Source: an uncultured Thermoleophilia bacterium (GTDB lineage Bacteria; Actinomycetota; Thermoleophilia; UBA2241). Taken from it: a DNA stretch of 64,000 nucleotides. The stretch lies in assembly GCA_963751215.1 (NCBI GenBank), contig CAVVTV010000024.1, forward strand, positions 1,052,178-1,116,177. The letters run 5' to 3'. Shown here one piece after another: positions 7,660 through 62,527 of this stretch; positions within the stretch are counted from its first letter, which is position 1; every line of letters begins with the position of its first letter. The translations under genes and the position numbers were made by a program. The notes below the pieces were generated by a model. It saw only the letters and a list, made by a program, of their open reading frames with translations. It did not search any database and was not told the DNA's origin.

Positions 7660-10600
7660 TCAGGCAAGCCGCAGACACACAACCTGAAGGTCGTCCTTAA
7701 GGCTGCCCGCGAACTCGAGGGCGGCGGTCCGCACGCCGTCGGCAAACTCCTGAGCGGAGAGCCCTCTCAGCCGGCAGGCCAGGTTGGCGAGTCGCTTCTC
7801 GCCATACTGCCGACTACCGCGGCGGGCCTCGGTGACGCCGTCAGTGTAGAACAACAGGTAATCATCCAGGGAGAGCCAGAGATGCTCTTCGCGGTAGTTG
7901 CTCGGGAAGCTGCCGAGGGGAGGCCCGAACATGACCCCGAGCTGCCGGCAGGCGGAGGGAGTCACATGGACTGGAGCGGGATGGCCGGCGCTGGCGTAGA
8001 GCATGTGCCCGGTACGGGGATCGAGCACCACCATGAAGGCGGTGACGTGCGGTTCCTCGGAGTCGTAGCGCAACAAGACGTCACTAGTGTTGGCGAGGAC
8101 GAAGGCCGGAGAGGGGTTAACGGCGGCAAACGCGCGCACCGTGCTGCGCACCGTCTCGGTGTGCCCCGCTGCCTTGATGCCCTTGCCGGCCACGTCGCCG
8201 ATCAGCACCGCAATTCTACCGTCTGCCAGCTCGAAGACCTCGCTGAAGTCGCCGCCGATGAGCTCCGGCTCATAGGCCGTCTGCGAAACGATGCCAAGCT
8301 CGATGCCGGGCACGCCCGGCAGCGGGTGCTTGAAGCTCTCCTGCAGGGTCGTGGCGATGCGCTGCTGCTCTTCGTAGAGCCGGGCATTCTCGAGAGCCGA
8401 CGACATGGCACTGGCCAGCTGGCCGGCAAACTCGACGGTGCGCCGCTCGAACCTCGTAGCGGCTGCATGGCGGTTGAAGAAGACGACGCCCAGGACCTCT
8501 TCTCTGACGATCAGTGGTATGCAGAGAACGGAGCGCACGCCGAAGCGGGCTTGCACATCGGGGAAGCAGCGCGGGTCGGCCTCACAGTCGTCGATAGCGA
8601 TCGGGCGCCGCTCCGTGACCGCAGTGACGACGAACGGCACCTCGTCGGTGCTAACGCTCTCGTGGATGACCCCTGGCACCTCCGGATAGCCGTACTCGGC
8701 GACCCAGTCGTCGCCGTGCTTGAGCGCGACCATGACGCTGTCCGCCTCGACGACGGCGACAGCGCGCTCGACAACGGTCTGCATGATGGCCTTCGTATCC
8801 AGGGTCGAGTTGATCAAGCGGTTGATCTCGTTGAGGGCCGTGGCGAGGCGCGCCGCTTCAGTCTCGCGTGCGAGTAGACGCGCGTTCTCAAGGGCCAGAG
8901 AGACGGTGGCCCCGAGCTTGCGCGCGAAGTCGATCTCGGCGTCCTCGAAGTTGCGTGGCGTCTTGCCGTAGAGCAGCAGGCAGCCCATCGCCGAGCCCCT
9001 GGCTACCAGCGGCACCGCAAGCACGGACCGCACGGCATGGATGTGGACGAAACCGACGTCAAGTGACGGATCGGCGGCCATGTCGGCAATCGCAAAGGGT
9101 TCCAGGATTGCCGCGGCGCGCGTGGCGTTGGGCGCCTCCAGATCGCTCAGCCGCAGGCCGACATCGCCAGGCGAGAAGCCTGTCTGGTAGCTTACTACCC
9201 AGCAGGACTCCTCACGCATCTCGATCGCGCCGGTATCGACGGATAGAGCCCGCACGCCTTCCTCAAGGCCCCGCTGCATGATCACGTCGAGGTCGAGCTT
9301 GGAGTGCACCAAGTTGTCGATCGCGTTGAGCGCCTCGGCGAGGTCGGCGCGCAGTCTCAGCCCCTCCTCCGCCCGCAGGCGGGCTGTGACGTCGTTGAAG
9401 ATGGTCGCGAACTTGCCCGGCGAGGGAGTGTAGGCGACGACCTCATAATGCCGATCGAGAGCAATGGAGTAGTGATCGAAGGTCGCCTGGCGGCCAGTCT
9501 GCGCCACGTTGCCGCAGACCTCGATCCAGAGAGGCTCGCGGCTGGGAAGCACCTCACGAGCGGTGTGCCCGATGAGGTCATTGGCGCGCAGGCCGATGAG
9601 CTCCTCGAAAGCCCTGTTGACCTCGAGGAAACGATAGTCGACCGGGCGACCCTCCGAGTCGCTCACGATCTCGTGGACGGCGAAGCCGCTGGTCATCTCC
9701 GTGAAGAGTCTCTGATACGCGCCACGGCTGGCGGCCAAGCCCGCATTGGACGATTCGATCTCAAGCGCCTGCGCCTGCAACTCCTCGCCCTGAGAACGCA
9801 GCTCCTCGCCCTGCGTACGCAGCTCCTCGAGCGCTTGCTGATGCTCGAACTCGGCTTGCTTGCGCTCCGTGACGTCCGAGAACAAGACCGTGACTCCATC
9901 TGGGCTTGGGTAGTCTCGTTCCTCAACCCAGAGACCTAGCGGTTCGTAGTAGGCCTCGAAGGCGGCGGTCCGGCCCTCCTCCATCGCCTTCCGCTTGCTC
10001 AGCTCGAAGATGCTGCCCGCCATGTCTGGGAAGAGCGCCAGGAAGCTGCGACCGAGCAGCTCCTCCTTGGTGCGCTGGAAGTAGGCGGCCGCCCTGTCGT
10101 TCACGAACGTGAGACGCCAGCGGCGATCGAGCGTGAAGAAGGCGTCGCTGATCGTGCCCAGGATAGTGGCCAGACGCATGTGCGAATTGGCCAACTCCCG
10201 TTCAACGTACTTGCGCTCGTTGATCTGACGGTAGTAGGCGCTGACGCCTGCCGCGGTCGGGTAGATGCGCACCTCATACCAGTCTCTGTCGACGACCGAG
10301 CGATGTTCGAAGATGGAGGGCTGGCCGAGCTCCATGGCATCCCGGTAGTGAGCCGCGAGCGGGGTGTCGACCAGCTCCGGGAAGACCTCCCACGGCGTGC
10401 GGCCGAGCAGCTCTGCAAGCGACGTACCGGTCATCTTGAGGGCGGCGCTGTTGGCGTAGACGTAGCGGTACTGCCAGTCGAGTGCCAGGAAGGCCTCGTC
10501 GATCTCCTCGAGCAGGGCCCTCATCCTGATCTCGCGATGGGTGCTCTGCGGCGTGCCGGCAACCACGGCGAGACCGCTCTCAAGTGACCCCACGGGGCAC

Positions 10601-11034
10601 CCTTCGACCGCGCGCTTGACCATCCTCACGGTGAGACCCCCGTCTGGAGGCGTGTGCAGGCGCAGATCGTCCATCATTCGCGACATCATGAAGAGGCCCC
10701 GTCCGCCCATACTCATAGGGTCGGGCGCCGCCTCGGGGTCAAAAGAGGCGACGTCAAAGCCCCGGCCTCTATCCTTCACCTCGACAATCAGAGTCGCGCC
10801 GTTGATCCCGAGCGAGACCCGCATCTCCTCATCGGACCCCGAGTGAGTGATGACGTTGGCGCAGGCCTCGTCAACGCAGAGAAGCACGTCATCGACGAGA
10901 CCGTCCCCGGCGCAGTGCATGCGCAGGTAGTCGCGAATGCGCTCCCGGGCGCGCAGCAGCAACGCCGGGTCGGGGGCCAGGCGAAAGCGCAGGGACGGTG
11001 GTGAGATCTCAGGGAGGTGACTTGGTGCTGACAC
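7660..11034 (-). CDS. multidomain signalling protein: N-terminal RsbW/SpoIIAB-like HATPase (anti-sigma Ser kinase) - PAS x3 with coiled-coil - GAF x2 - C-terminal PP2C (SpoIIE/RsbU-type) phosphatase
   Basis: 1124-aa ORF with GTG start. N-terminus LRMHCAGDGLVDDVLLCVDEACANVITHSG...GRGLFMMSRMMDDL...GGLTVRMVKRA (HATPase_c of anti-sigma kinases). PAS-like segments, EELRTQGEELRSQGEELQAQ coiled coil, two GAF domains. C-terminus GDFSEV...VLIGDVAGKGIKAAG...YASAGHPAP...YTDGVTEAR (PP2C). Confidence 0.85.
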   Translation of the reverse strand: MSAPSHLPEISPPSLRFRLAPDPALLLRARERIRDYLRMHCAGDGLVDDVLLCVDEACANVITHSGSDEEMRVSLGINGATLIVEVKDRGRGFDVASFDPEAAPDPMSMGGRGLFMMSRMMDDLRLHTPPDGGLTVRMVKRAVEGCPVGSLESGLAVVAGTPQSTHREIRMRALLEEIDEAFLALDWQYRYVYANSAALKMTGTSLAELLGRTPWEVFPELVDTPLAAHYRDAMELGQPSIFEHRSVVDRDWYEVRIYPTAAGVSAYYRQINERKYVERELANSHMRLATILGTISDAFFTLDRRWRLTFVNDRAAAYFQRTKEELLGRSFLALFPDMAGSIFELSKRKAMEEGRTAAFEAYYEPLGLWVEERDYPSPDGVTVLFSDVTERKQAEFEHQQALEELRTQGEELRSQGEELQAQALEIESSNAGLAASRGAYQRLFTEMTSGFAVHEIVSDSEGRPVDYRFLEVNRAFEELIGLRANDLIGHTAREVLPSREPLWIEVCGNVAQTGRQATFDHYSIALDRHYEVVAYTPSPGKFATIFNDVTARLRAEEGLRLRADLAEALNAIDNLVHSKLDLDVIMQRGLEEGVRALSVDTGAIEMREESCWVVSYQTGFSPGDVGLRLSDLEAPNATRAAAILEPFAIADMAADPSLDVGFVHIHAVRSVLAVPLVARGSAMGCLLLYGKTPRNFEDAEIDFARKLGATVSLALENARLLARETEAARLATALNEINRLINSTLDTKAIMQTVVERAVAVVEADSVMVALKHGDDWVAEYGYPEVPGVIHESVSTDEVPFVVTAVTERRPIAIDDCEADPRCFPDVQARFGVRSVLCIPLIVREEVLGVVFFNRHAAATRFERRTVEFAGQLASAMSSALENARLYEEQQRIATTLQESFKHPLPGVPGIELGIVSQTAYEPELIGGDFSEVFELADGRIAVLIGDVAGKGIKAAGHTETVRSTVRAFAAVNPSPAFVLANTSDVLLRYDSEEPHVTAFMVVLDPRTGHMLYASAGHPAPVHVTPSACRQLGVMFGPPLGSFPSNYREEHLWLSLDDYLLFYTDGVTEARRGSRQYGEKRLANLACRLRGLSAQEFADGVRTAALEFAGSLKDDLQVVCLRLA

Positions 11035-11083: not shown

Positions 11084-14000
11084 CTACCCAGCAGCCTGCT
11101 GCCTCAGCCTCTCGTTGTCGACGGCCAGGGCAACCAAGGCGGCGATCTTGGCGGCGAAGTCGATTTGCGCCTCGGAGAAGGCCATCGAGATAACCTTCCA
11201 ATTGAACAGCAACACGCCGACCACGCTGCCGGCAACCACGAGTGGGGCAGCGAGCACCGAGCTCAGCCCCAGTGTCTTCAGCACCTTCGCAGAGACGCCC
11301 TCTGGGCTACTGCCCAGGCTTATCGCCACCGGCAAGCGCGTCTCCGCGGCCAGCACCGCATGCGGAAACTCGGCATCGGAGAAACGAGCTCCTGCGGCGC
11401 TGGGCGGCAGGTTGTGGCTGTGGCGCGCGACCCAAACCGCATCCTCGCGAACGGCGACCGTGGCGGAGTCGGCGCCCAGCGTGGCGCTGGCCTCCTGCAG
11501 CAGCCCGGGCAGAGCGGCAGCCGGCGTCTGGTTTGCGGCAAAGCCGGCGAGAACGCGGTTCACACTCTCGTTCATCGTCAAGGAGATCTGGATCTGCTCC
11601 AGGCTGCGATGCAGCTCGTCGATGTCGAGGAAGGTGAGCACAGCGCCGTCAACGCGCCTCTCTGCCGTCTGGAAGGGCCGCACCCGCAGGGTGTACCAGC
11701 GCCCGGCGGCGTCTCGCACCTCGCGCACCACCGTCGTCGCGTTCTCGATCACCTCGCCGAGAAGCTCTCGCAGGTCGGGGACGACCAGGCCGCTCGAGAT
11801 GTCGGTGACGGGCCGCCCCACGTCTGTGGCGATCAGGTTGAGCACCGCCTCGGTACCCGGCGTGAAGCGCCGAATGGTGAGATCGCGGCCGACGATCACT
11901 GTGGGTACACTCATGGCGCGCAGCAGGTTGCTGACGTCGTCGTAGGCGCCCGCCAGCTGCTGGTTGCGGCTCACGAGCTCCTCGTTGACGGTGCGCAGCT
12001 CCTCGTTTGTTGACTGCAGCTCCTCCTTGGCGGTCTCGAGCTCTTCGTTGATGCTCTGCAACTCCTCGTTTGTAGACTGGATCTCCTCGTTGGCGGCGCG
12101 CAGCTCCTCGTTACTCTTCTCTCGCTGCTGAATGACCGACTGCAGGTAGACCTGGGTAGAGGCACGCTCGCGTCTGAGGGCGAGGATCTCCTGCCTTTCC
12201 GCACCGCTTGGCGGGCTCGTCTCCGGCGAGGCTTCGATCGCCTCCCGGTGAGGCGTCATGAAGAGCACCAGCACGTGCTCTTGATCGGGCGGTCCGGCGA
12301 GCGGCACGGCCTCCAGGTCGACCATCTGACCGGCCTCGGTACCGTGCACGGCGACGCCGGCTTCGCTCTGCGCGCTGGCCTCATGGCGCACGCGCTCGAC
12401 GAGCTCGCGCAGGGGTGCCGAGAGGCCTTCGCGAGCCATGGCGAGCAGGTTGAGCGTAGCGCGCCCAGCGGCATGCTGCAGGTAGGGGTCCGTGTCGCCG
12501 AAGAACTGCACGATCTCAAGGCGGTGATCGACCACTACGGCCGGTGGCGTGAAGTCGGTGAGCAGGGTGTGGGCGGCCGCCTCGAGCGGGTCGGGGTATG
12601 CCACGGAACCCGGCTCGCCGATCGGCTCCACTCGGGGCTCACCGCGATGCTCGAGGATCGCCGGGAAGGGGTAGGCGAACTCGATCGGCAGGCGCGGTGG
12701 CACGTCGTTCTTGACGAAGATCTTGTTGCGATTGTCGATCACGGTGAAGAGATCTCCGGCGGCGCCGAGCGATTCTGAGAGCCCCAGCATGAGGAAGGCG
12801 CCGGGCAGCAGGGCGTAGTGCAACATCGGTAGCACGCGCTCCTGTAACACGCGGCCGAGGTAGATGAGCACGTTGCGACAGACGATCAGGTCGAGCCGTG
12901 AAAAGGGCGGGTCGCGAGTGACGTCGTGGCGGGCGAAGACGCACATGTCGCGAATAGCTCGGTCGATCTGGTAAGCACCGTCGGTGCGCGTCAAGAAGCG
13001 CTCGCGCAGGTCGGCGGGTATGGACGCCACGCGGCTCTCCGGGTACTCTCCCGCCCGCGCCAGCGCCAGCTCACGTTCGTTGATGTCGGTAGCAAGGATC
13101 TTGATGGGGAACCGGTTTCCGGCTCCCTGCATGGCCTCGGCCAGCACCATGGCGAGGCTGTAGGGCTCCTCGCCGGCGGCGCAGCCGGGCACCCAAACGC
13201 GCACCTCGCGGCCGGGATCGCGACCGGCAAGAAGAGCAGGCAAGACGTGCTCTTTGAGACCCTCGTAGGTCTCTGGCTCGCGGAAGAAGTCGGTCACCAT
13301 CACCAGAATGTCGTGATAGAGCTCGTCGAGCTCACCGCGGTCGACGGCGATGAGATTGGCATACGCATGGCGCGAGTCGAGGCGCTGCAGGACCATACGC
13401 CGTTCGATGCGCCGGCTGACCGTGCCGCTCTTGTAGCCCGCGAAGTCGACGCCAAAAGCCTCGCGCAGGGCGATGAGGATGCGCGTCGTGTCGTCGTCCG
13501 TGCGGGCCGTCGGGGCTGATTTCTTGCCAGCGGACTCGCTCACATAGGGGTGTCCGCCGAGGCGCACGAGCTCCCCGGCGATCTGCCCGGGCGCCAGCAC
13601 CTTGTCGGCGACACGGGCGTGGATCGCGCTCGAGGGCATGCCGTCGAAGCGTGCGGTAGCCGGGTCCTGGGCGAAGGCGATGCCGCCTGCGCCTTTGACG
13701 GCAGCGAGGCCCAGCGTGCCGTCGGTGCCCACGCCCGAAAGCACTACGCCGATCGCCCTTTCCCCGAGGTCTTGCGCGAGCGATTTGAGGAACTGATCGA
13801 TGACCAGATGCCGGGCGCTGGGTTCAAGGCGCTCCAGCAGATCGAGGTGGCCATGGTATATCACCATGTCGACGCCGGGCGGGATGACGTAGACATGATC
13901 GGGTTGCACGGCCATGCGGTTCTCGACCTTGACGACCGGCATGGCCGTGTGCCGAGCGAGAAGCTCGGGCAGGATGCTGCTGTGCTGCGGCGCCAGATGC

Positions 14001-14143
14001 TGCACCAGGACGAGCGCCACCCCGGGGCTCTGCGGTAGCTTGTCGAGCAGGGCGGAGACCGCCTCGAGGCCACCCGCGGAGGCGCCTATACCAACGACGG
14101 GGAAGCGCATCGTTACGCCGCGCTTCTGTTTCGCTGTTGCCAT
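11084..14143 (-). CDS. CheB methylesterase - CheR methyltransferase - coiled-coil - PAS - GAF fusion protein
   Basis: ORF 11084..14167. ATG at 14143 (MATAKQ), alternative 14110. VVGIGASAGGLEA (CheB-type), VWVPGCAAGEEPYSLAMVL with MVTDFFREPETYE (CheR SAM methyltransferase), heptad NEELQSTNEELRTVNEEL block, PAS, C-terminal GAF. 50-bp gap to 7660..11034 on the same strand. Confidence 0.8.
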   Translation of the reverse strand: MATAKQKRGVTMRFPVVGIGASAGGLEAVSALLDKLPQSPGVALVLVQHLAPQHSSILPELLARHTAMPVVKVENRMAVQPDHVYVIPPGVDMVIYHGHLDLLERLEPSARHLVIDQFLKSLAQDLGERAIGVVLSGVGTDGTLGLAAVKGAGGIAFAQDPATARFDGMPSSAIHARVADKVLAPGQIAGELVRLGGHPYVSESAGKKSAPTARTDDDTTRILIALREAFGVDFAGYKSGTVSRRIERRMVLQRLDSRHAYANLIAVDRGELDELYHDILVMVTDFFREPETYEGLKEHVLPALLAGRDPGREVRVWVPGCAAGEEPYSLAMVLAEAMQGAGNRFPIKILATDINERELALARAGEYPESRVASIPADLRERFLTRTDGAYQIDRAIRDMCVFARHDVTRDPPFSRLDLIVCRNVLIYLGRVLQERVLPMLHYALLPGAFLMLGLSESLGAAGDLFTVIDNRNKIFVKNDVPPRLPIEFAYPFPAILEHRGEPRVEPIGEPGSVAYPDPLEAAAHTLLTDFTPPAVVVDHRLEIVQFFGDTDPYLQHAAGRATLNLLAMAREGLSAPLRELVERVRHEASAQSEAGVAVHGTEAGQMVDLEAVPLAGPPDQEHVLVLFMTPHREAIEASPETSPPSGAERQEILALRRERASTQVYLQSVIQQREKSNEELRAANEEIQSTNEELQSINEELETAKEELQSTNEELRTVNEELVSRNQQLAGAYDDVSNLLRAMSVPTVIVGRDLTIRRFTPGTEAVLNLIATDVGRPVTDISSGLVVPDLRELLGEVIENATTVVREVRDAAGRWYTLRVRPFQTAERRVDGAVLTFLDIDELHRSLEQIQISLTMNESVNRVLAGFAANQTPAAALPGLLQEASATLGADSATVAVREDAVWVARHSHNLPPSAAGARFSDAEFPHAVLAAETRLPVAISLGSSPEGVSAKVLKTLGLSSVLAAPLVVAGSVVGVLLFNWKVISMAFSEAQIDFAAKIAALVALAVDNERLRQQAAG

Positions 14144-14261
14144 GAGCCTACCTTCGGGGTCGATCACATTCTAGCCCCTCGAGGGTCGGCACGCGGCCGG
14201 CGTCGTTATAGAGGTCTGCCGGCAGCATCTCCTCAACTGATGCCAACGCCTTTGACTCAGC

Positions 14262-16239: not shown

Positions 16240-17004
16240 CTAATCGTGAACGGGAAACTGCGAGACCGATACTTCCCTGGCGCCCGACGGCAGCGTGAAC
16301 CAGCACGTCGCTTGAGCAGCGGCCGGTAGCCAACCGTAGTCGATGGTCACCAGGCCGAGACCGTCGGGACGTTCCAGCATACGGATCGGCAGATACGTCT
16401 GAGGATCGACGTAGTAGCGCCGGTGCATACTGGGCTCCGAGTCAGCCAGCACCAGCACCTGCTGGCCGCGCAGGACGGTCTGGCCCACCCGGGTGATGTC
16501 GGCTGCCTGTAGCGGCGCCTGCAGCGCCGCCAGGGGCGCGGGCACGCCAGTGGCCGGAGCAGTGCTCGGCAGCGCCTGGCCGGGATGAGCGGCCTGCCAG
16601 GCTGCCTGCTTCTGCGCCAGGCCCTTGGCGAGAGCAGCGTGTGAGGTGGCGCCCAGCCGTTCGAGGAGGTCCCAGATGCAAGCCTCCTCCTCGGGAAGTT
16701 GCTCCCAGGCCGGGCTCCCCTCAACGGCCGAGGCTCGCACTGCCTCGCGCACCTCGCGTTGCCGCCGCCGCCGCTGACTGCGCCGCATATTGAGGTGAAC
16801 GTTGCGTGAGGCCGCGAGGAGCCAAGGGAGCGGCGCCTCGCCGGGAATGCCTTCGAGGCGGCGCCAGGCGACGAGGAAAGTCTCTGCGACGATGTCGTCA
16901 GCGAGCGCCGGCTCTCGCCGCCAGGCGAACGCACGCACGGCCCCGTAGTGGGCGTTGTAGAGCGCATTGAACCCGCTCTCTCGCCGCTTTCGATCGAGCG
17001 TCAT
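16240..17004 (-). CDS. ECF-type sigma-70 region-2 domain protein with a non-sigma C-terminal domain (no recognisable region 4)
   Basis: ATG 17004 with GGGGAGG RBS. FNALYNAHYGAVRAFAWRR...DDIVAETFLVAWRRL...PWLLAASRNVHLNMRRSQRRRR is a canonical ECF region 2. The remaining about 150 aa have no HTH or region-4 signature. Confidence 0.55.
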   Translation of the reverse strand: MTLDRKRRESGFNALYNAHYGAVRAFAWRREPALADDIVAETFLVAWRRLEGIPGEAPLPWLLAASRNVHLNMRRSQRRRRQREVREAVRASAVEGSPAWEQLPEEEACIWDLLERLGATSHAALAKGLAQKQAAWQAAHPGQALPSTAPATGVPAPLAALQAPLQAADITRVGQTVLRGQQVLVLADSEPSMHRRYYVDPQTYLPIRMLERPDGLGLVTIDYGWLPAAAQATCWFTLPSGAREVSVSQFPVHD

Positions 17005-21691: not shown

Positions 21692-22004
21692 TTAGTCCCG
21701 GAGCAACCCGCGGAGCGCGTCTATCTCCAAATCGCGCTCGACCAGCATATGCCTGAGACACGCGTTCTCAGACTCCAGCTCGCGCATGTGCTTTACATCG
21801 GCGGTTGTCATTTGACCGTAGCATCGCTTCCAGCGGTAGAACGTCTGCTCGGAGATGCCATGGATGCGGCAGACCTCGACCGCCGTGGTCACGCCCCCGG
21901 CGGTCGCGGCCAGGATATCGACGATTTGTGCCTCGGTGTGCTTCACTGCAGCCCCCAGATGCGAGCAGTTGGGAACACCAAGTTGCCCCCGGTGAGTGGG
22001 TACA
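21692..22004 (-). mobile_element. IS3-family remnant: putative left inverted repeat (TGTACCCACTCACC...) plus solo orfA (HTH/leucine-zipper InsN-like, 84 aa, GTG start ~21946); orfB absent
   Basis: ORF 21692..22105 C-terminal 84 aa: KHTEAQIVDILAATAGGVTTAVEVCRIHGISEQTFYRWKRCYGQMTTADVKHMRELESENACLRHMLVERDLEIDALRGLL, a typical IS3/IS911 OrfA. No transposase catalytic ORF follows before the operator module. Confidence 0.65.
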
Positions 22005-22164
22005 ATCCCACCCCCTTCCGTATGGCTATCATAGCTCACCAGAGGCCGTCGTGCCCGTTTCAAGCAATGTCCGCACGGCTCGCTGATCGTTCGCCAGCTC
22101 ATCACGGATTCGCACGCCCCACGGTCGCGTCACGGCGACCCGTTGGTTGCAGAGACCGGCCGCC

Positions 22165-39769: not shown

Positions 39770-40135
39770 CTAGCCCTGCTGCTGTGTCCCCACGGCAGCG
39801 GGCACGCCGTTGCCTGGCTGTGAGCCGATGCAGACCTCGCAGCCACACGAGGCCTGGTGGCGCCAGCCGTCGCTGGGCACGACCGCCATGGCGACCATGA
39901 CGCGCTCGTCACGACGCGGCTGCCACCAGAAGTTGATGCCGTCGAAGCTGTAGGTGGGAAACTCAGCCGAGCTTCCGGGTCGCCACGCCCAGCGTTGCGT
40001 TCGTAGCACGTCGCGTAGAGTGAGCAAGGCGGAAGAGAGGTTCCTCGGTTCTGGGATCTTGCGGCCGACCGCCTCGTGCCGAACGTGCTTGGCCATGAGA
40101 CTGTCGGCGATCGTTTGCAGATCAAACTTGTTCAC
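39770..40135 (-). CDS. small hypothetical protein, DGINFW...SCxCxxC family member 1
   Basis: 121-aa track ORF (start possibly internal). C-terminal half YSFDGINFWWQPRRDERVMVAMAVVPSDGWRHQASCGCEVC aligns with 56358..56585 (YRYDGINFWRMHGEHSLLASAGDAPASGWWHRDSCNCPLC). Confidence 0.5.
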   Translation of the reverse strand: MNKFDLQTIADSLMAKHVRHEAVGRKIPEPRNLSSALLTLRDVLRTQRWAWRPGSSAEFPTYSFDGINFWWQPRRDERVMVAMAVVPSDGWRHQASCGCEVCIGSQPGNGVPAAVGTQQQG

Positions 40136-41648: not shown

Positions 41649-42035
41649 TTAGGCGGGCTGGCTGCCCGGCTCTAGAGTTCCCAGGTCTGACGCCGCCAGC
41701 GCCTCGGTGCGCTGCGCGTAGATGGCCAGGATGCGATCGAGGCCGGTGAGCTCGAAGAGGCGCTTGATCGCGGCGTTACTGCAGACGATGACAAGCGAGC
41801 CCTCGGCCGCGGCCAAGCGCTTGACGCCGCCGATCACGACGCCGAGCACCGTCGAGTCGATGAAGCTCACCTCGCTGAGGTCCACGATGACGCGGCGGGC
41901 ACCGTCGTTGATGCCACGCAGAAGAGCCTCCTTGAACTGCGGCGCGGTACAGAGATCGACCTCGCCTTGGAGCGCGACCACCGCGCAGCCCGCAGCTGGC
42001 ACAATGAGCTCCACGTGGAACGGTGGCGTAGTCAC
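41649..42035 (-). CDS. STAS-domain anti-sigma-factor antagonist (SpoIIAA/RsbV-like)
   Basis: ORF 41649..42188 trimmed to the GTG with GGAGAGGTGAGG RBS. ELIVPAAGCAVVALQGEVD...VIVDLSEVSFIDSTVLGVVIGGVKRLAAAEGSLVIVCSNAAIKRLFELTGL with conserved phosphorylatable Ser in DSTVLG. Confidence 0.7.
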   Translation of the reverse strand: MTTPPFHVELIVPAAGCAVVALQGEVDLCTAPQFKEALLRGINDGARRVIVDLSEVSFIDSTVLGVVIGGVKRLAAAEGSLVIVCSNAAIKRLFELTGLDRILAIYAQRTEALAASDLGTLEPGSQPA

Positions 42036-42242
42036 GGGCGGCCTCACCTCTCCGGGTGGCGCCGCCGGCACGCCGACACCCTGCTCCTGATGCGCTTGCG
42101 CCCGCCTTGCAGAGCCCGGCGACTCGGAAGATCTTGGGGCGGCGGCATGAACCCTAGCACAGCGCAGTGGTCGGCGATGTCTCCCCAACTGACGCCAACA
42201 TCTTTGACTCGGGCCGCCTGCCGGGTCGACACACGCTCACGG

Positions 42243-55171: not shown

Positions 55172-55568
55172 TGCCCACCCATCGGACGAGAATCTTGATC
55201 GGCTTACTGGAGGGGCCGCCTGCGACGGCCCCAGGAGTCTCTTTCCATGCGGCTCTCACCGCACTCTCCTCCCTTTTGAACAGATCTGCCGATTATGGTT
55301 ATTCCGGAGCCGAACACGCTGCTAACAGGGTCCGCAACGACCTGGTCGCCCCTCACTTGCCGCGTAGAACCTGACGCAGCTTGAGGCGCTCGCCAGTGTG
55401 CAGGATCGCCCGGCCGTAGATCGCGCCGGCTACCCGGGCCATCCTAGCTGACGCCTCCCGCGTGATCGGTAGCTCAGAGCGAAGACGGGCGGAGCGATCA
55501 GAGGCACACACTGTTTCTCGGAGAGCGTGTCCGGGTAGCCTGCCGCCAGGCTTTCGAGGAGGGGTGAG

Positions 55569-56036
55569 ATGCACGGTGACGCAAGGGTGATCGACGAGCT
55601 CAACGCCAGGCTGGCCGAGGAGCTTACCGCAGTTAATCAGTACATGGTGCACGCCGCGATGTGCGAGGACTGGCACTACGGCCGCCTGCGTGAGCCGATC
55701 AAGAAGCGCGCCGTCACGGAGATGAAGCACGCCGAGAGGCTGATCGAGCGCCTTCTCTTCCTCGACGCCCACCCGATCGTGAGCAAGCTCAACCAGATCC
55801 ACATCGGGGCGGCCGTGCCGGAGATGCACACCAACGACCTTGCCAGCGAAGTCGAGGCCGTCAAGGCCTACAACGAGAGCATCCGTGTGTGCGCTGAGCT
55901 GAAGGACGACGGCACTAAGGAAATGCTCGAGGCGATCCTCGCCGATGAGGAAGGCCACGTCGACTGGCTCGAGGCCCAGCTTGCCCAGATCGAGCAGGCC
56001 GGCCGCGAGAACTATCTGGCTGAACAGATCGGCTAG
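55569..56036 (+). CDS. bfr: bacterioferritin
   Basis: 155 aa. VIDELNARLAEELTAVNQYMVHAAMCEDWHY, EMKHAERLIERLLFLDA, EEGHVDWLEAQL are ferroxidase-centre and heme Met motifs. GGAGGGGTGAG RBS. Confidence 0.9.
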   Translation: MHGDARVIDELNARLAEELTAVNQYMVHAAMCEDWHYGRLREPIKKRAVTEMKHAERLIERLLFLDAHPIVSKLNQIHIGAAVPEMHTNDLASEVEAVKAYNESIRVCAELKDDGTKEMLEAILADEEGHVDWLEAQLAQIEQAGRENYLAEQIG

Positions 56037-56357
56037 GGGCCACCAGGCGGCTCTCGGGGCGCGGCCGTCAGGAGGGTGGGCTCGGCGCTTCCCTGGCGTC
56101 CCGGGCGGGTTGTTGGCCGGCACGCCGCTCAGCTCTCGCGATGGCGCGACCAGACGAGGCTGTCCGGGCCGGAGGCCCGGTCCATGCTCCCAACGCACAT
56201 TCATCTCAGCCATCTCGAATCAGCCGACTAGCGGAGGTAGGGGCCTGCTCCAGGACTCCATGTAAGGCACGGCCCGAGTCAACTGTTCGACCCCGGCAGG
56301 GGCGGGTAAGAGTCTTGTTTCAATGGGCCAGATAGGCGAAGGAGCCCGGTTTTGGAG

Positions 56358-56585
56358 ATGCGACACGGACCCTACTCACGCGAGCAGATCACGGCCGCAG
56401 GACGGCCTGCGACCTGCGAGCCCCTCAGCCCCGGCGAAGACCACTATCGCTACGACGGCATCAACTTCTGGCGCATGCACGGCGAGCACTCCCTCCTTGC
56501 GTCTGCCGGCGACGCCCCCGCCAGCGGCTGGTGGCACAGGGACAGCTGCAACTGCCCTCTGTGTCGCGGTGAAACGACGGAGTAA
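56358..56585 (+). CDS. small hypothetical protein, DGINFW...SCxCxxC family member 2
   Basis: ORF 56352..56585 (TTG) trimmed to ATG. 75 aa. See 39770..40135. Confidence 0.5.
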   Translation: MRHGPYSREQITAAGRPATCEPLSPGEDHYRYDGINFWRMHGEHSLLASAGDAPASGWWHRDSCNCPLCRGETTE

Positions 56586-56806: not shown

Positions 56807-58375
56807 ATGGCGGCTGAAGGTCGCCACTCCACCGGCGGCCCGGGGCAGACAGGTCTCGCGCCGCGGATCCTTTTGATCGAGGACAATCCCGGCGATGCGC
56901 GCCTCGTACGGGAGCTCCTCGCCGAGGCCAACCCGGGTTTCGAGTTGCACTGGGTGCAGCAGCTCGCGGCCGGCCTTGCGTACCTCGCCGAGGGCGATCA
57001 GATCGCCGCCGTGCTGCTCGACCTCTCACTACCCGATAGCCAGGGATTGGCGACCTTCGAACGCCTGCACGCCGCAGCCCTCGAGGTGCCCATCATCATG
57101 CTCACCGGCCTAGCCGACGAGGAACTCGCCCTGCAGGCCCTGCGCGGCGGTGCCGCTGACTACCTGACCAAGGACGACATCAGCGGGGCGCTGCTCGTGC
57201 GCGCGGTGCGCTACGCGGTCGAGCGCCGCCAGAGCAACGAGGTGCTGCGGCTCAGCGAGGAGAAGCTGCGTCTCGCTATGGAGGCGAGCGAGTCGGGCAT
57301 CCTCGACCTCGACGTCCCCACCCGCCAGATGACCTCGAGCGCCGACTGCCAGGCGATGCTCGGCCAGCCGTCGGTCGAGGTGAGCGGCCCACTCGAAGAG
57401 ATCTGGGCCGCCTACATCCACCCCGAGGACCGCGCGGCCAGCTTGCAGGCGCTCGAGGAGACGATCGCGGGACGCTCTCCCTACTTCGAGCGCGAGCACC
57501 GCCTGCGCACCACGCGTGGCGGTTGGGCCTGGGTGTACGACAAGGGCAAAGTGGTCGAGCGCAACGCCCAAGGCGCCGCGCTTCGCCTGCTCTCCACCTG
57601 CACGAACATCACGACGCGCAAGAAGGCAGAGGAAGATGCCGTCACCACGGCCACCCTGCTTGCCGAGCAGCGCCGCATCGCCACCACCCTGCAGGAGAGC
57701 TTCAAGCACCCGCTGCCGGACGTGGCCGGCATCGAGCTCGGCGTGGTCTCACAGACGGCCTACGAGCCCGAGCTCATCGGCGGCGACTTCAGCGAGGTCT
57801 TCGAGCTCCCCGACGGGCGGATCGTCGTCCTCATCGGCGACGTGGCCGGCAAGGGAATCAAAGCGGCGGGGCTCACCGAGACGGTGCGCAGCATGGTGCG
57901 CGCCTTCTCCGCCATCGATCCCTCACCGGCCTTCGTCCTTGCGAAGACCAATGAGGTCTTGTTGCGCTACGACCCCGAGGAGCCCCACGTCACGGCCTTC
58001 CTGGCCGTGCTCGACCCGCAGAGCGGACATCTGAGCTACGCGAGCGCCGGCCACCCCGCCCCACTGCACCTGAGTCCCTTCTCCTGTCGCCCGCTCGGCG
58101 TCGGCTTCGGCTCGCCGCTGCACAGCTTCCCGGGCCCATACCAGGAGGAGCACCTCAGGCTCTCGCTAGACGACTACCTGCTGCTCTACACTGACGGCGT
58201 CACCGAGGCACGCCGCGGCGAGGAGGAGTTCGGTGAGGAGCGGCTGATCGAAGTGGCCAGGCGGCTGCGTGGCGCTTCCGCCCAGGAGGTCGCCGAGGGC
58301 GTGCGCGCCGCGGCGCTCGAGTTCGCCGGCAGCCTGAGAGACGACCTGCAAGTTGTGTGCCTGAGGCTCGCCTAG
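56807..58375 (+). CDS. response-regulator receiver (REC) - PAS - PP2C (SpoIIE/RsbU-type) phosphatase
   Basis: ORF 56723..58375 trimmed to first ATG. RILLIEDNPGDARLV...DLSLPDSQG (REC, Asp pocket). PAS. PP2C about 80% identical to the C-terminus of 7660..11034, with the same terminal DDLQVVCLRLA. Confidence 0.8.
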   Translation: MAAEGRHSTGGPGQTGLAPRILLIEDNPGDARLVRELLAEANPGFELHWVQQLAAGLAYLAEGDQIAAVLLDLSLPDSQGLATFERLHAAALEVPIIMLTGLADEELALQALRGGAADYLTKDDISGALLVRAVRYAVERRQSNEVLRLSEEKLRLAMEASESGILDLDVPTRQMTSSADCQAMLGQPSVEVSGPLEEIWAAYIHPEDRAASLQALEETIAGRSPYFEREHRLRTTRGGWAWVYDKGKVVERNAQGAALRLLSTCTNITTRKKAEEDAVTTATLLAEQRRIATTLQESFKHPLPDVAGIELGVVSQTAYEPELIGGDFSEVFELPDGRIVVLIGDVAGKGIKAAGLTETVRSMVRAFSAIDPSPAFVLAKTNEVLLRYDPEEPHVTAFLAVLDPQSGHLSYASAGHPAPLHLSPFSCRPLGVGFGSPLHSFPGPYQEEHLRLSLDDYLLLYTDGVTEARRGEEEFGEERLIEVARRLRGASAQEVAEGVRAAALEFAGSLRDDLQVVCLRLA

Positions 58376-58715
58376 AGGCGGGGCTCAGACCGCGGCTCAC
58401 CCCTCAAGGCGCACATCACCTGCACCGCTGTGCGTCAGCCGAAGACCGTCATCTGCTGTGGCGGCTCAGCGGGCGGCGCGTGCGGAGCACTTCCTCGGCC
58501 CGACACTGCTCCCACGCCTAAAAGGCCGCCGAACATGTCGCCTGGGGTGGCCGCCAGCCCAGCCAACGGCTGTTGGGAAGGAGCAGGAGCGGGAGGCGAG
58601 AACATGGCGAGGCCATGTAAGGCCTCCCGCCCGGGGGCACGCTGGAGGGCAAGTGCAGTCGTTCTATCTAGCCCGGCGCGCGTCGGCCGCGCGCACGCGC
58701 GAGGCTCTTCGCGCC

Positions 58716-58811
58716 AGGGGCCTTTTCCTCATAGAGCACGTGATGGACGAGGTCACCGTCAGCTCCGATAGTCGGGGCACGACCGTGCGTATGGTCAGGC
58801 GCGTCGCCTGA
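58716..58811 (+). pseudogene. possible remnant of an RsbW-like anti-sigma kinase C-terminus
   Basis: End of ORF 58458..58811 reads RGLFLIEHVMDEVTVSSDSRGTTVRMVRRVA*, resembling GRGLFMMSRMMDDL...GGLTVRMVKRA of 7660..11034. The upstream part of the ORF is Arg-rich noise. Confidence 0.3.
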
Positions 58812-59728: not shown

Positions 59729-61402
59729 CTACCGACGGCGCAGCACGCGCCCACAACGCTCGCCCGTAGTGCTACCCGCATCGATGGCAAGTTCCCCATT
59801 GACGAACACATAGTCCATGCCCTCGGCGTAGCGTGGCGGCATGTTCTTGAATGGGTAGTCGTGTGGATACTCGTTCGTCGCTCTATCGCGGATCGCCTCC
59901 AGGTCGAACACAACTACGTCTGCCCACAGGCCCGGTCGTAGAACACCACGATCCCAGAGTCCGAACCGTTGCGCCGGGAAGCTAGTCATCTTGCGCACCG
60001 CCTCTTCGAGACGCAAAACACCGCGCTCCTTCACGAAGGACTCGAGCACCCGGGCGTACTCGCCGTAACAGCATGGCCAGTAGTCCGGCGACTCGCCATC
60101 TTGTGAAGGAAGCTGGGCGACGAAGCCGTCGGAGGAGACCATGGAAAGCGGATGTGAGAGAACCTCGTCGACATCGTCGCTTCCGACATAGTCGAAGATC
60201 GCGACGATGTTGTCGTCATTCTCCACTATCAGGTCGAGATACGTCTCGAGAGGGTCGCCAGGGCGCTCGCCCGCGATATCGTCTACTGAACGTCCGACCA
60301 GGCACGCGTTGGATGCCGACATGATGACGATACGGTCGAAGCGCGCATGCCGGAGAAGGCCCGCGTAGCCGGGGGCGGGCAACAGATCGGCAGAGATCTG
60401 CCGTCTGAGTGTCCCCCTTCTGGCCGGATCCGCAAGAATCGCCATCATCTCGGCGTGTTCCAAATCGGCGATCGGCTGCGGAAGGGCACGAGACAGCCGC
60501 GGGGCAAGATCGGTATGCGTGTCGTTGTCGATTGTCACATCGATGCCACGCCGACGGGCCAGCTCGATCTCCTCAAGGCTTCTTGCGGCCGGCGGTCCGC
60601 CCCATTTTGGAGCGTTATGGGATATCTCGACCGGAAGCCCGGTCTCCTCGGCGATAGAGAGCGCCTCTCTCATGGCATCGAGAAGTGTCTCCCGCTCTCC
60701 GCGCACGTGCGACGTGTAGATCCCTCCGTATTTCGCGACGACACCCGCGAGCTCCTGGAGCTCTGCGGTCTGCGCATAGCAGCCGGGGGGGTAGACAAGG
60801 CCAGTGGACAGACCGAGCGCGCCGTCTGCCAGGCTCTGGGCGAGGAGCTCCTTCATCGTATCCATCTCGTCGCTGGTGGGCACCCGACGCTCAAAGCCCA
60901 TGGCAGAGGCGCGCAGCGTTCCGTGACCGACGAGCGGAGCTACGTTGATGCCGATGCCCCGCGCCCCGAGGACATCCAGGTACTCCTTGAACGAGGTCCA
61001 ATTCCACTCGAAGCCACTGACGTCCCAGTAGTACGAGAGCTGATGAATCACATCGTCACGTCGCGCTTCCAAGATGGGCGCCGACGACATGCCGCAGTTG
61101 CCGGTGACATGGGTGGTTACGCCCATCCTAAGGATGCTCTCCGCACCCGGAGACCCGAGTATGGTGACGTCAGAATGCGTGTGTGGGTCGATGAATCCGG
61201 GTGTCACGTAGCGATCCTCGGCCTCAATCACGCGCACGTCGGAGCTATCGGATGGTGCGCGAAGCCGTCCCGGAGAAGCGATCTCGGCAATCACACCACC
61301 GTCGATGAGCACGTCGGCTCTCACCCAGGGATTGCCACAACCGTCAATGACGCGACCGCCGCGTATGACAGTCTTCTCAGCAGTGTCTCGCTTGGCGCTC
61401 AT
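59729..61402 (-). CDS. N-acyl-D-amino-acid deacylase (D-aminoacylase, amidohydrolase superfamily)
   Basis: Part of track ORF 59729..62527. ATG 61402 with ACGGAGGGAAGAG RBS. IRGGRVIDGCGNPWVRADVLIDGGVIAEI, PGFIDPHTHSD metal-ligand motif. Confidence 0.8.
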   Translation of the reverse strand: MSAKRDTAEKTVIRGGRVIDGCGNPWVRADVLIDGGVIAEIASPGRLRAPSDSSDVRVIEAEDRYVTPGFIDPHTHSDVTILGSPGAESILRMGVTTHVTGNCGMSSAPILEARRDDVIHQLSYYWDVSGFEWNWTSFKEYLDVLGARGIGINVAPLVGHGTLRASAMGFERRVPTSDEMDTMKELLAQSLADGALGLSTGLVYPPGCYAQTAELQELAGVVAKYGGIYTSHVRGERETLLDAMREALSIAEETGLPVEISHNAPKWGGPPAARSLEEIELARRRGIDVTIDNDTHTDLAPRLSRALPQPIADLEHAEMMAILADPARRGTLRRQISADLLPAPGYAGLLRHARFDRIVIMSASNACLVGRSVDDIAGERPGDPLETYLDLIVENDDNIVAIFDYVGSDDVDEVLSHPLSMVSSDGFVAQLPSQDGESPDYWPCCYGEYARVLESFVKERGVLRLEEAVRKMTSFPAQRFGLWDRGVLRPGLWADVVVFDLEAIRDRATNEYPHDYPFKNMPPRYAEGMDYVFVNGELAIDAGSTTGERCGRVLRRR

Positions 61403-61428
61403 CTCTTCCCTCCGTAATACGAAACTCG

Positions 61429-62527
61429 TCATGACTCTCCCGCGGCCACCCTCAAGCAGGCGGCGTAGTGGTCCCCGGCGATCTGCACGTCGGCGGGGTC
61501 GCTCTCGGAGCAGGCCGCGATGGCCTCCGGGCATCTCGGGTGAAAGCGGCAACCCGAGGGGATGTCGACCGGGTTCGGGGTCTCGCCCTTCAAGATCACG
61601 TGCTCCCGCTTGGCCAGCGGGTCGGGCACCGGGATCACGCTGATCAGCGCCTTGGTGTAGGGGTGCCGGGGGTGGGCGACGACCTCCTCGGTCTCGCCGA
61701 TCTCGACGATCCGTCCCAGGTACATCACGGCGATGCGATCGCTGATCACCCAGGCGAGCGAGAGGTCGTGCGTGATGAAGATGTAGGTGACGCCGAGGCG
61801 CTCCTTCTGCTCGACCATGAGCTTCAAGATGTCGTTGCGGATCGAGACGTCGAGCGCTGGCCACCGGCTCGTCGGCGACGATCACGTCGGGTGAGAGCAC
61901 CGTGGCGCCGGCGATGCAGACGCGCTGCCGCTGCCCGCCGGAGAGCTCGTGCGGGTAGCGGTAGAGATACTCGGTGGCGGGCCGCAGGCCGGCCTCGCTG
62001 ATCGCCTTGATGACGCGCTCCTCCTTCTCGCGCTCGCTGGCGCAGAGGCCATTGACCTCGAGCGGCTCGGCGACGATGTCGAAGATCGTCTGCTTGGGGT
62101 TGATCGAGTTGTAGGGGTCCTGGAAGATGATCTGCGCCTTCTTGCGGTACTCGTGGAGCGTCTTCTGCGTGAAGCGCTCCACGGGCAGGCCCTTGTAGAG
62201 GATGTGGCCGCCGGTGGGCTCTTCGAGGCGCAAGAGGGTGCGCCCGGTGGTCGTCTTGCCGCAACCGCTCTCGCCGACCAGGGCGAGGATCTCGCCCTGG
62301 CGGACCTGGAAGGAGATGCCGTCGACGGCGCGCACGAACTTCTTCTCGGAGGAGACCAGGCCGCGGAAGAAGCCCTGCTGGATGGGGAAGTGCACCTCGA
62401 GCGCGCGGATATCGAAGAGCACGCCGTCGGTGATCTGGGCCGCGGCGAGGTCGCGGACGGCGACCTTGCCCTTCTCGTAGGTGGGGCCGGGAGCGCTGCC
62501 GGCGGGGGCCTGCTGTGTGGCAGCCAT
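61429..62527 (-). CDS. peptide ABC transporter ATP-binding protein (DppF/OppF-like) carrying an apparent 2-nt frameshift near 61845
   Basis: N-terminal frame (ORF 59729..62527): [16 protein letters not shown] (Walker A), [14 protein letters not shown] (signature), ...ADEPVASA then noise. C-terminal frame (ORF 61429..61827): ...[26 protein letters not shown] plus oligopeptide C-terminal domain. Expected [16 protein letters not shown] is restored by inserting 2 nt in a GCGCGC context. Confidence 0.7.

Follow-up and report, generated by a model that had tools for sequence, protein, structure and literature searches.

A REC-PAS-PP2C phosphatase gene of an uncultured Thermoleophilia bacterium with a probably replaced catalytic module and the remnant of an RsbW-like gene downstream

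Two PP2C phosphatases with unrelated sensor regions share a catalytic module

We analyzed a 64,000-nucleotide (nt) stretch from an uncultured Thermoleophilia bacterium (contig CAVVTV010000024.1 of assembly GCA_963751215.1, positions 1,052,178 to 1,116,177), referred to here as the window, and focused on two phosphatase genes that we call A and B. Gene A (56807-58375, forward strand) encodes a REC-PAS-PP2C response-regulator phosphatase of 522 amino acids (aa), assigned by Pfam matches to Response_reg (62.8 bits, cutoff 30.2), PAS_3 (56 bits), and SpoIIE (145.7 bits, PF07228 cutoff 25), and an identical 522-aa protein is present in the protein database (P0001). In an AlphaFold2 (AF2) model of A, with a mean predicted local distance difference test score (pLDDT) of 85.6, the REC domain (residues 20-126; 56864-57184) adopts a (beta-alpha)5 fold and is followed by a long helix. 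The PAS domain, placed by PAS_3 and the model, spans residues 164-267 (57296-57607) and is joined to PP2C by a linker helix, H269-298 (57611-57700), delimited by the model and by alignments; the first PP2C strand covers residues 309-316 and the GGDF motif residues 325-328, all encoded on the forward strand. Gene A terminates directly after PP2C (DDLQVVCLRLA and stop), without a C-terminal kinase or anti-sigma domain.

Since a search of 5.8 billion proteins returned 18 full-length REC-PAS-PP2C homologues (P0002-P0019, 53-64% identical to A), the architecture of A is that of a conserved family. The receiver residues E25/D26 (acidic pocket), D72 (phospho-acceptor), T100, and K122 are invariant across 18 homologues, as are the PP2C metal-binding aspartates D327, D345, D463, and D512/D513 (motifs GGDF, GDVxGKG, TDG, and DD). 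Scanning genome contigs with A returned distant relatives only, at 30-51% identity, and the metagenome contig scan gave no close match.

Gene B (7660-11034, reverse strand) encodes a protein of 1124 aa with the Pfam architecture HATPase_c_2 (RsbW-like)-PASx3-GAFx2-PP2C, which resembles that of OsaC. Its RsbW-like kinase domain (residues 20-140; 10615-10977, reverse strand) matches PF13581 with 78.7 bits, and the N-box (DEACANVITH), G1 (DRGRGF), and G2 (GGRGLF) boxes can be read in the translation. The PP2C module of B, delimited by BLASTP and alignment to A (7660-8373, reverse strand), scores 134.4 bits against SpoIIE/PP2C (PF07228 cutoff 25) and keeps the metal-binding motifs found in A. This architecture is widespread, as hundreds of proteins combine an RsbW-like kinase, PAS, GAF, and a C-terminal PP2C.

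An earlier reading of this DNA from its letters alone (the sequence-only reading) had claimed that about 240 C-terminal residues of A and B are roughly 80% identical while the N-terminal architectures are unrelated. Both statements were borne out: over their final 237 residues the two proteins give a gapless alignment with 78.9% identity, both ending in DDLQVVCLRLA, while their N-termini are unrelated and no BLASTP segment with E<0.05 was found outside the shared C-terminal region. We looked for a third PP2C copy within the window and found none. At the nucleotide level, the shared region is about 75-78% identical, with 61% identity at third codon positions, and over the 237 shared codons (NG86) the nonsynonymous divergence (dN) is 0.135, the synonymous divergence (dS) 0.65-0.72, and dN/dS about 0.2. 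By these values, the relationship between A and B is an old one maintained under purifying selection rather than a fresh duplication, and both genes, which retain all catalytic motifs, are under such selection. A search for PP2C homologues covering 5.8 billion proteins further revealed that the similarity is not exceptional by the refutation criterion that the sequence-only reading had itself set: more than 50 GAF- or PAS-linked PP2Cs from unrelated metagenomes are 65-72% identical to the PP2C of A, and the B-like proteins P0021 (82.6%) and P0025 (80.6%) from other sources are slightly closer to it than B itself (79%). The proposal of a duplicated module in a recently diversifying network therefore has to be divided, as the dS values rule out a recent duplication while the exchange of small tracts, described below, does appear recent.

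The same dS and dN/dS values, together with the many PP2Cs from unrelated metagenomes at 65-83% identity to A, would also suit an account in which A and B are ordinary old paralogues, their PP2C domains staying similar through strong conservation and that of A descending vertically with its REC-PAS half and no exchange at all. This account is weighed against the phylogeny.

The PP2C of gene A groups with kinase- and GAF-linked PP2Cs

When A was compared with P0002-P0019 domain by domain, REC and PAS were 55-71% identical and PP2C just 55-59%. Taken alone, this domain-wise ratio fits ordinary paralogy as well, since the PP2C deficit of A relative to REC and PAS in comparison with its nearest orthologues (-0.06 to -0.12) lies within the spread of other pairs. 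The core of the REC family has a 3-aa insertion in PP2C that is absent from A, and neighbor-joining (NJ) trees of 118 PP2C domains, with bootstrapping on a 42-sequence subset, placed the PP2C of A with those of B, P0021, and P0025 (88.5% bootstrap), all three of which are GAF-linked and, where the sequence is complete, kinase-linked. The core REC-family PP2Cs form a clade of their own with 100% bootstrap, and A falls outside it. This nesting within a terminal clade of kinase-PAS-GAF-PP2C proteins, the position outside the REC-family clade without its insertion, and the visibly chimeric sister-strain allele described below, where REC-family sequence meets B-type sequence at ELIGGDF, all argue against vertical descent without exchange, which we consider very unlikely.

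Other REC-linked PP2Cs are scattered in the 118-domain tree (P0008/14, P0010/13/17, P0012, P0018, and P0019). Since REC-linked PP2Cs fall at several positions, re-assortment of sensors and PP2C domains is common in this protein family.

Two regions of gene A depart from the divergence between strains

A sister-strain allele of A, which we call A' (P0121), lies on contig L064 from a different sample and encodes a protein 93% identical to A. The orthologue of B, B' (P0149), lies on L070 from the same sample as L064 and is 98% identical to B. Across the upstream intergenic sequence, the REC-PAS part of A, and B compared with B', the strains are 97.5-98.3% identical in nucleotides, and the REC-PAS part accounts for 15 differences over 876 nt (98.3%). 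Two regions of gene A, both on the forward strand, fall well below this baseline. The first is an 87-nt tract (57683-57769, residues 293-321) covering the last part of the linker helix, the loop that follows, and the first beta-strand, where A and A' are 67.8% identical. Here A' has a sequence of REC-family type, LQENFIRPLPQVKGLELGTVMRAAHKA (86% aa and 82.8% nt identity to P0002), while the sequence of A is B-type, LQESFKHPLPDVAGIELGVVSQTAYEP (89.7% aa and 88.5% nt identity to B); it matches B exactly over 33 nt in a row and carries the B-specific residues S298, K300, and I309. The second is the 3' segment (57947-58375), the last 429 nt, which is 90.0% identical between the alleles, with 43 differences set against the 15 of the 876-nt REC-PAS part (Fisher p = 5e-11). 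In this segment A' is nearer to P0021 than A is (88% vs 83% aa), A has some REC-family-like residues, and A agrees with B at 23 sites, A' with B at 15, and neither at 9. Because both regions depart from the strain baseline, patchy exchange appears to have continued after the strains split.

The two alleles also differ in where their halves meet. In A', REC-family sequence gives way to B-type sequence at ELIGGDF, whereas in A the boundary lies about 30 codons upstream, at the EQRRIAT motif. By alignment and the AF2 model, the B-type similarity of A begins inside the linker helix, near residue 287-293, and the module that identity to B and the tree clade suggest to be of B-like ancestry can be drawn at residues 286-522 (57662-58372, forward strand). 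The donor of the 87-nt tract would be B-like but not B, since B differs from A at 10 of the 87 nt, more than a conversion from B since the divergence of the strains would allow, and another paralogue or an imported allele appears to be its source.

An imported allele would be in keeping with a different origin of the strain mosaic, namely horizontal allelic exchange with divergent alleles of gene A and not conversion between paralogues of one genome. No sequence in the window qualifies as a donor at 97% identity or above, B reaching 88.5% in the tract; the differences in the 3' segment point to no single donor (23, 15, and 9 sites); A' is nearer to P0021, which comes from another metagenome; and the region seems recombinationally active because the blocks flanking gene A differ between strains. 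The B-specific residues and the 33-nt run shared with B of the same genome speak for a source within the genome instead, and we regard allelic exchange as possible, though the less likely course. An imported allele would itself have to stem from exchange between PP2C lineages, so that this origin would move the place of the exchange without removing its occurrence.

The remnant of an RsbW-like gene lies downstream of gene A

The pseudogene downstream of A consists of two forward-strand pieces in the same frame, an N-terminal piece at 58653-58715 (VQSFYLARRASAARTREALRA), recognized by homology to L064, and a C-terminal piece of 31 aa and a stop codon at 58716-58811, recognized by PF13581. The C-terminal frame ends in RGLFLIEHVMDEVTVSSDSRGTTVRMVRRVA and stop. 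Its match to HATPase_c_2 (PF13581) spans profile positions 93/95-126 of 127 (E 1.9e-5 to 4.8e-6); being that of a fragment, the score of 25-27 bits stays slightly below the 27.4-bit cutoff. The RsbW-like C-terminus that the sequence-only reading had placed here is thus detectable as HATPase similarity at 58716-58811 (E 4.8e-6). In a phmmer search of 1.84 billion proteins, the best matches were the stand-alone RsbW-like proteins P0260 (161 aa, 75% identity, E 1.1e-4) and P0263 (139 aa, 64%). The kinase domain of B is just 43% identical to the remnant, compared to 75% for the stand-alone protein, which ruled out the remnant as a copy of that domain.

The N-terminal piece is 92.5% identical in nucleotides to L064 6327-6431. 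The window and L064 are homologous along gene A and, past a gap at 58419-58609, again from 58610 up to exactly 58715, and the sequence common to both strains just before this break encodes ...ARRASAAR(T/M)REALRA. Past the shared part, the L064 frame continues as RRASAARMREALRAYLAQHSLAEPIVIDVLLA, and this continuation, YLAQHSLAEPIVIDVLLA, corresponds to the N-terminus of the same RsbW-like family, being 56% identical to residues 18-49 of P0263 (Smith-Waterman score 94 against 34.8 ± 4.8 for shuffled sequences, none of 500 reaching 94; z about 12). About 76 codons are absent from the remnant, among them the N-box and G1-box, which leaves the ATP-binding fold incomplete, and a search of all frames of 58376-58715 revealed no further kinase-domain remnants. 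As N-terminal pieces are present in both strains and a C-terminal piece in the window, the common ancestor of the strains would have had an intact stand-alone RsbW-like gene right after A. This gene appears to have been inactivated independently, as the window shows an internal deletion that keeps the frame and L064 another kind of truncation.

The break between 58715 and 58716 could also be read as a rearrangement breakpoint, with the remnant arriving together with the neighboring TetR block and never having been a partner of A. Homology to the sister strain does stop exactly at 58715, and the sequence between the TetR gene and the remnant differs in all relatives examined. However, the sequence before the break is common to both strains and continues in L064 as an RsbW-like N-terminus (z about 12), the N- and C-terminal pieces share one frame, and an internal deletion within a single gene explains all of these features. 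Arrival with the TetR block is accordingly improbable, and we dropped it because the N-terminal piece lies upstream of the break in both strains. Separately, the 191-bp stretch between A and the pseudogene (58419-58609) that is absent from L064 is unique in the window, and it was ruled out as a repeat or mobile element.

Among the homologues of A, P0018 (641 aa; L063 5001-6926) fuses REC-PAS-PP2C to a C-terminal HATPase_c_2 domain, and its gene follows those of a PAS histidine kinase and a single-domain REC protein. Because P0018 joins both domains in one chain, a pairing of PP2C with a kinase is plausible for the REC-PAS-PP2C family. Intact loci combining A and an RsbW-like gene were found neither among the contexts of TetR homologues and of the nearest RsbW-like proteins nor in metagenome contig scans with the pseudogene peptide and with A. 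The claimed RsbW-like remnant is hence real, but it is larger than the C-terminal stub first described and represents an internally deleted stand-alone gene, not a copy of the kinase domain of B. Of the claim that an ancestral PP2C and kinase unit was broken up, the former presence of an RsbW-like gene directly downstream holds, while a functional unit is suggested just by adjacency and by the fusion in P0018.

The tract and the deletion junction recur in independent assemblies

L065, an assembly from another sample that is 99.66% identical to the window, contains the same 87-nt tract and the same deletion junction without any change, and the junction is identical again in L066, a separate Logan assembly that matches the window at 100% over 3159 nt. 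The chimeric sequence is not an assembly artefact. Long-read metagenome assembly could in principle create a chimera, tract, or remnant through collapsed paralogues or indel errors, and the related contigs apparently bear Flye-style names. A 1-nt indel in gene A of L065 shortens the call to 280 aa, and the CheB-CheR gene upstream of B is split in two in L070; these single-base indels are probably long-read consensus errors, and because they split genes, pseudogene calls in both assemblies need care. Given the recurrence of tract and junction in L065 and of the junction in L066, we find an artefactual origin hardly credible. Nor can a frameshift explain the remnant, because none of the frames ahead of 58716 yields the kinase core that it lacks.

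Gene A is an orphan regulator and the window contains a separate STAS gene

In three orthologous loci (L061-L063), the REC-PAS-PP2C gene is last in an operon, following a PAS-HisKA-HATPase (hybrid) kinase and then usually a single-domain REC gene. We found no histidine kinase or REC genes, or remnants of them, upstream of A in the window, where a bacterioferritin gene is followed by an open reading frame (ORF) of 77 aa. Since no cognate histidine kinase adjoins it, unlike in its orthologues, A is an orphan regulator. The bacterioferritin block (55181-56241) is swapped in L064 (3247-4149) for a glyoxalase gene and a truncated dienelactone hydrolase fragment, and as the right-hand flank of A also differs between the window and L064, both flanks are strain-variable and A lies in a rearranging region. 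In 55-60 kb, we detected neither Rfam families nor sigma-70-like promoters, nor any convincing terminator.

A BldG-like STAS (anti-anti-sigma) gene lies in the ORF at 41649-42188 (reverse strand), with its domain at approximately 41700-41990 (PF01740, E 1e-20) and a true start that is probably internal to the ORF. It was found by tblastn with BldG, RsbV, and SpoIIAA query sequences, with up to 45% identity, while a STAS regular expression had given no match. The phosphorylatable serine is present, as FIDSTVLG aligns with the DSTG motif of BldG/RsbV. The gene has an AsnC regulator and a DedA-type membrane protein as neighbors and no kinase gene beside it, in agreement with the orphan STAS gene described in the sequence-only reading. 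No sigma factor or other target co-located with STAS (41.7 kb), B (7.7-11 kb), or A (56.8 kb) was identified in the window.

Gene B has a neighbor of its own, a CheB-CheR-PAS_10-GAF fusion of 1027 aa without an output domain (11084-14167, reverse strand) whose end lies 50 nt upstream of B. Because only 50 nt separate them, the two genes probably form one operon. The pairing is kept in the sister strain (L070), and relatives include CheR-PAS_10-PP2C fusions (P0090).

A replaced catalytic module best explains the locus

Taking the locus as a whole, we think it likely that A is an orphan REC-PAS-PP2C protein whose PP2C was replaced, that short tracts were exchanged later, and that the downstream RsbW-like gene was destroyed independently in both strains. 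The REC-PAS half of A would derive from the conserved REC-PAS-PP2C family, and its catalytic half would have been replaced from the OsaC-like kinase-PAS-GAF-PP2C lineage to which B belongs, the two halves meeting along the conserved stretch of linker helix and first strand (EQRRIATTLQE...ELIGGDF). The bulk of this replacement would be old, while short tracts would have been swapped among PP2C paralogues or alleles after the 98%-identical strains diverged. The NJ tree of PP2C domains and the strain-level mosaic both support exchange onto REC-PAS and, with it, the earlier suggestion that the PP2C module had been shuffled onto a different sensor.

Several observations count against this interpretation. 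The PP2C tree is by NJ only, and branching inside the clade of A, B, P0021, and P0025 has bootstrap values of 26-60%. The recently exchanged tracts have no donor at least 97% identical within the window, and the direction of the tract change is ambiguous, as either A may have acquired the B-type tract or A' may have returned to the REC type. P0260 and P0263, the nearest intact homologues of the RsbW-like remnant, do not adjoin PP2C genes. A and B are 15-33 kb away from STAS, and the analysis turned up no cognate sigma factor.

Proposed function and relation to known systems

With RsbY, HsbR/CrsR, OsaC, and Rv1364c taken as analogues, A is probably the phosphatase of a phospho-STAS protein, active once its receiver has been phosphorylated by an unlinked kinase, and B probably both phosphorylates and dephosphorylates such a protein. 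An unlinked histidine kinase would phosphorylate D72, and the combined REC and PAS input would act through the linker helix on the switch helices of PP2C. The candidate substrate of activated A is the BldG-like protein (~41.7-42.0 kb), which the kinase domain of B may be able to phosphorylate.

In Bacillus cereus, RsbY (REC-PP2C) acts with the hybrid kinase RsbK and, as a response-regulator PP2C, sets off a partner-switching cascade; a kinase in the operon is also seen in L061-L063. A differs in having a PAS domain between REC and PP2C and no kinase, sigma factor, or STAS gene adjoining. The CheB-CheR fusion beside gene B recalls RsbM, a CheR-type methyltransferase associated with the RsbK/RsbY pathway (PMC4574943).

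HsbR of Pseudomonas aeruginosa and CrsR of Shewanella combine REC, PP2C, and a kinase/anti-sigma domain and have the STAS partners HsbA and CrsA (PMC6482189). Likened to A by architecture, they exemplify a receiver-controlled PP2C working with an RsbW-like kinase on a STAS protein, as proposed here. Their arrangement, with PAS added, occurs in one polypeptide in the relative P0018, and the ancestor of A would have had the kinase as its next gene. A itself has the extra PAS, stops at PP2C, and has a separate kinase that is now a pseudogene, with no Hpt or kinase gene nearby.

The solved structure closest in sequence to the PP2C of A is that of Rv1364c from Mycobacterium tuberculosis (PDB 3KE6, E 1.6e-13, low identity). 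In Rv1364c (PAS-PP2C-kinase-STAS), an RsbW-like kinase module follows PP2C, as it does in P0018 and as it would have done at the ancestral A locus. Unlike A, Rv1364c is without a receiver and has its kinase and STAS in one chain. OsaC (SCO5747) of Streptomyces coelicolor carries a kinase domain and has PAS, GAF, and a C-terminal PP2C as in gene B, to which we liken it by architecture, while B has three PAS and two GAF domains. According to the cited passages, OsaC brings the activity of SigB back to the basal level (PMC8346170 ref 24; PMC12143880).

Baral et al. (eLife 2025, PMC12143880) proposed an 'exchangeable toolkit' in which a helical linker, by contacting alpha0-alpha2, lets REC, PAS, and GAF sensors replace one another on PP2C domains. 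In their proposal, the helical linker region is the route by which N-terminal sensors control PPM phosphatases and is what makes these sensors exchangeable (PMC12143880). At this locus, the exchange boundaries lie in the predicted linker helix (H269-298) and directly ahead of GGDF. While the toolkit model rests on RsbU structure and biochemistry, locus A provides an evolutionary footprint only.

Implications of module exchange at the locus

The locus would capture a module exchange in progress, with the catalytic module of one lineage on the sensor of another and the partner kinase decaying alongside. The same REC-PAS sensor would drive PP2C modules with sequence from a GAF-controlled paralogue lineage and with differing junctions, within the linker helix for A and directly ahead of GGDF for A'. 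The two alleles are ready-made chimeras for asking which elements must match for regulation and substrate choice. More speculatively, and with considerable doubt, the catalytic module of B may have redirected A to the STAS substrate of B and made its own RsbW-like kinase redundant, the two strains then representing a natural domain-swap experiment. If so, redundancy after the module swap would explain the independent loss of the kinase gene in both strains, and the locus would offer in vivo evidence for the 'exchangeable toolkit' and for the rewiring of partner switching by gene conversion. Partner-switching PP2C phosphatases are known with many different sensor domains. The locus does not represent a new kind of system, as all of its components come from well-known families and the re-assortment of PP2C sensors is already established.

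Other features of the window

The 77-aa ORF upstream of A (56352-56585, forward strand), called as a gene in L064 and L065 and kept upstream of A in both strains, encodes a small protein with a Cys motif. Its paralogue lies at 39770-40135 (reverse strand), about 1.5 kb from the STAS gene, and shares the motif DGINFW...GW.H..SC.C..C. The two small proteins are 37% identical over 43 aa (E 1e-10), have no Pfam match, and could be linked to this signaling network.

A 932-aa ORF at 59729-62527 (reverse strand) was considered as a frameshift fusion, which was ruled out, as the amidohydrolase is a gene of 557 aa in a 100%-identical contig; its frame stays open further upstream, running over the last part of an oligopeptide ABC ATPase gene (61429-61827) read in another frame. 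An ORF at 21692-22105 (reverse strand) has an IS3-type transposase HTH_Tnp_1 domain, so that the window contains at least a piece of an insertion sequence. The sole match of a 254-aa protein at 16240-17004 (reverse strand) is to Sigma70 region 2 (E 1e-7), and with its long uncharacterized C-terminal half it may be a sigma factor resembling the extracytoplasmic function (ECF) type with an extension.

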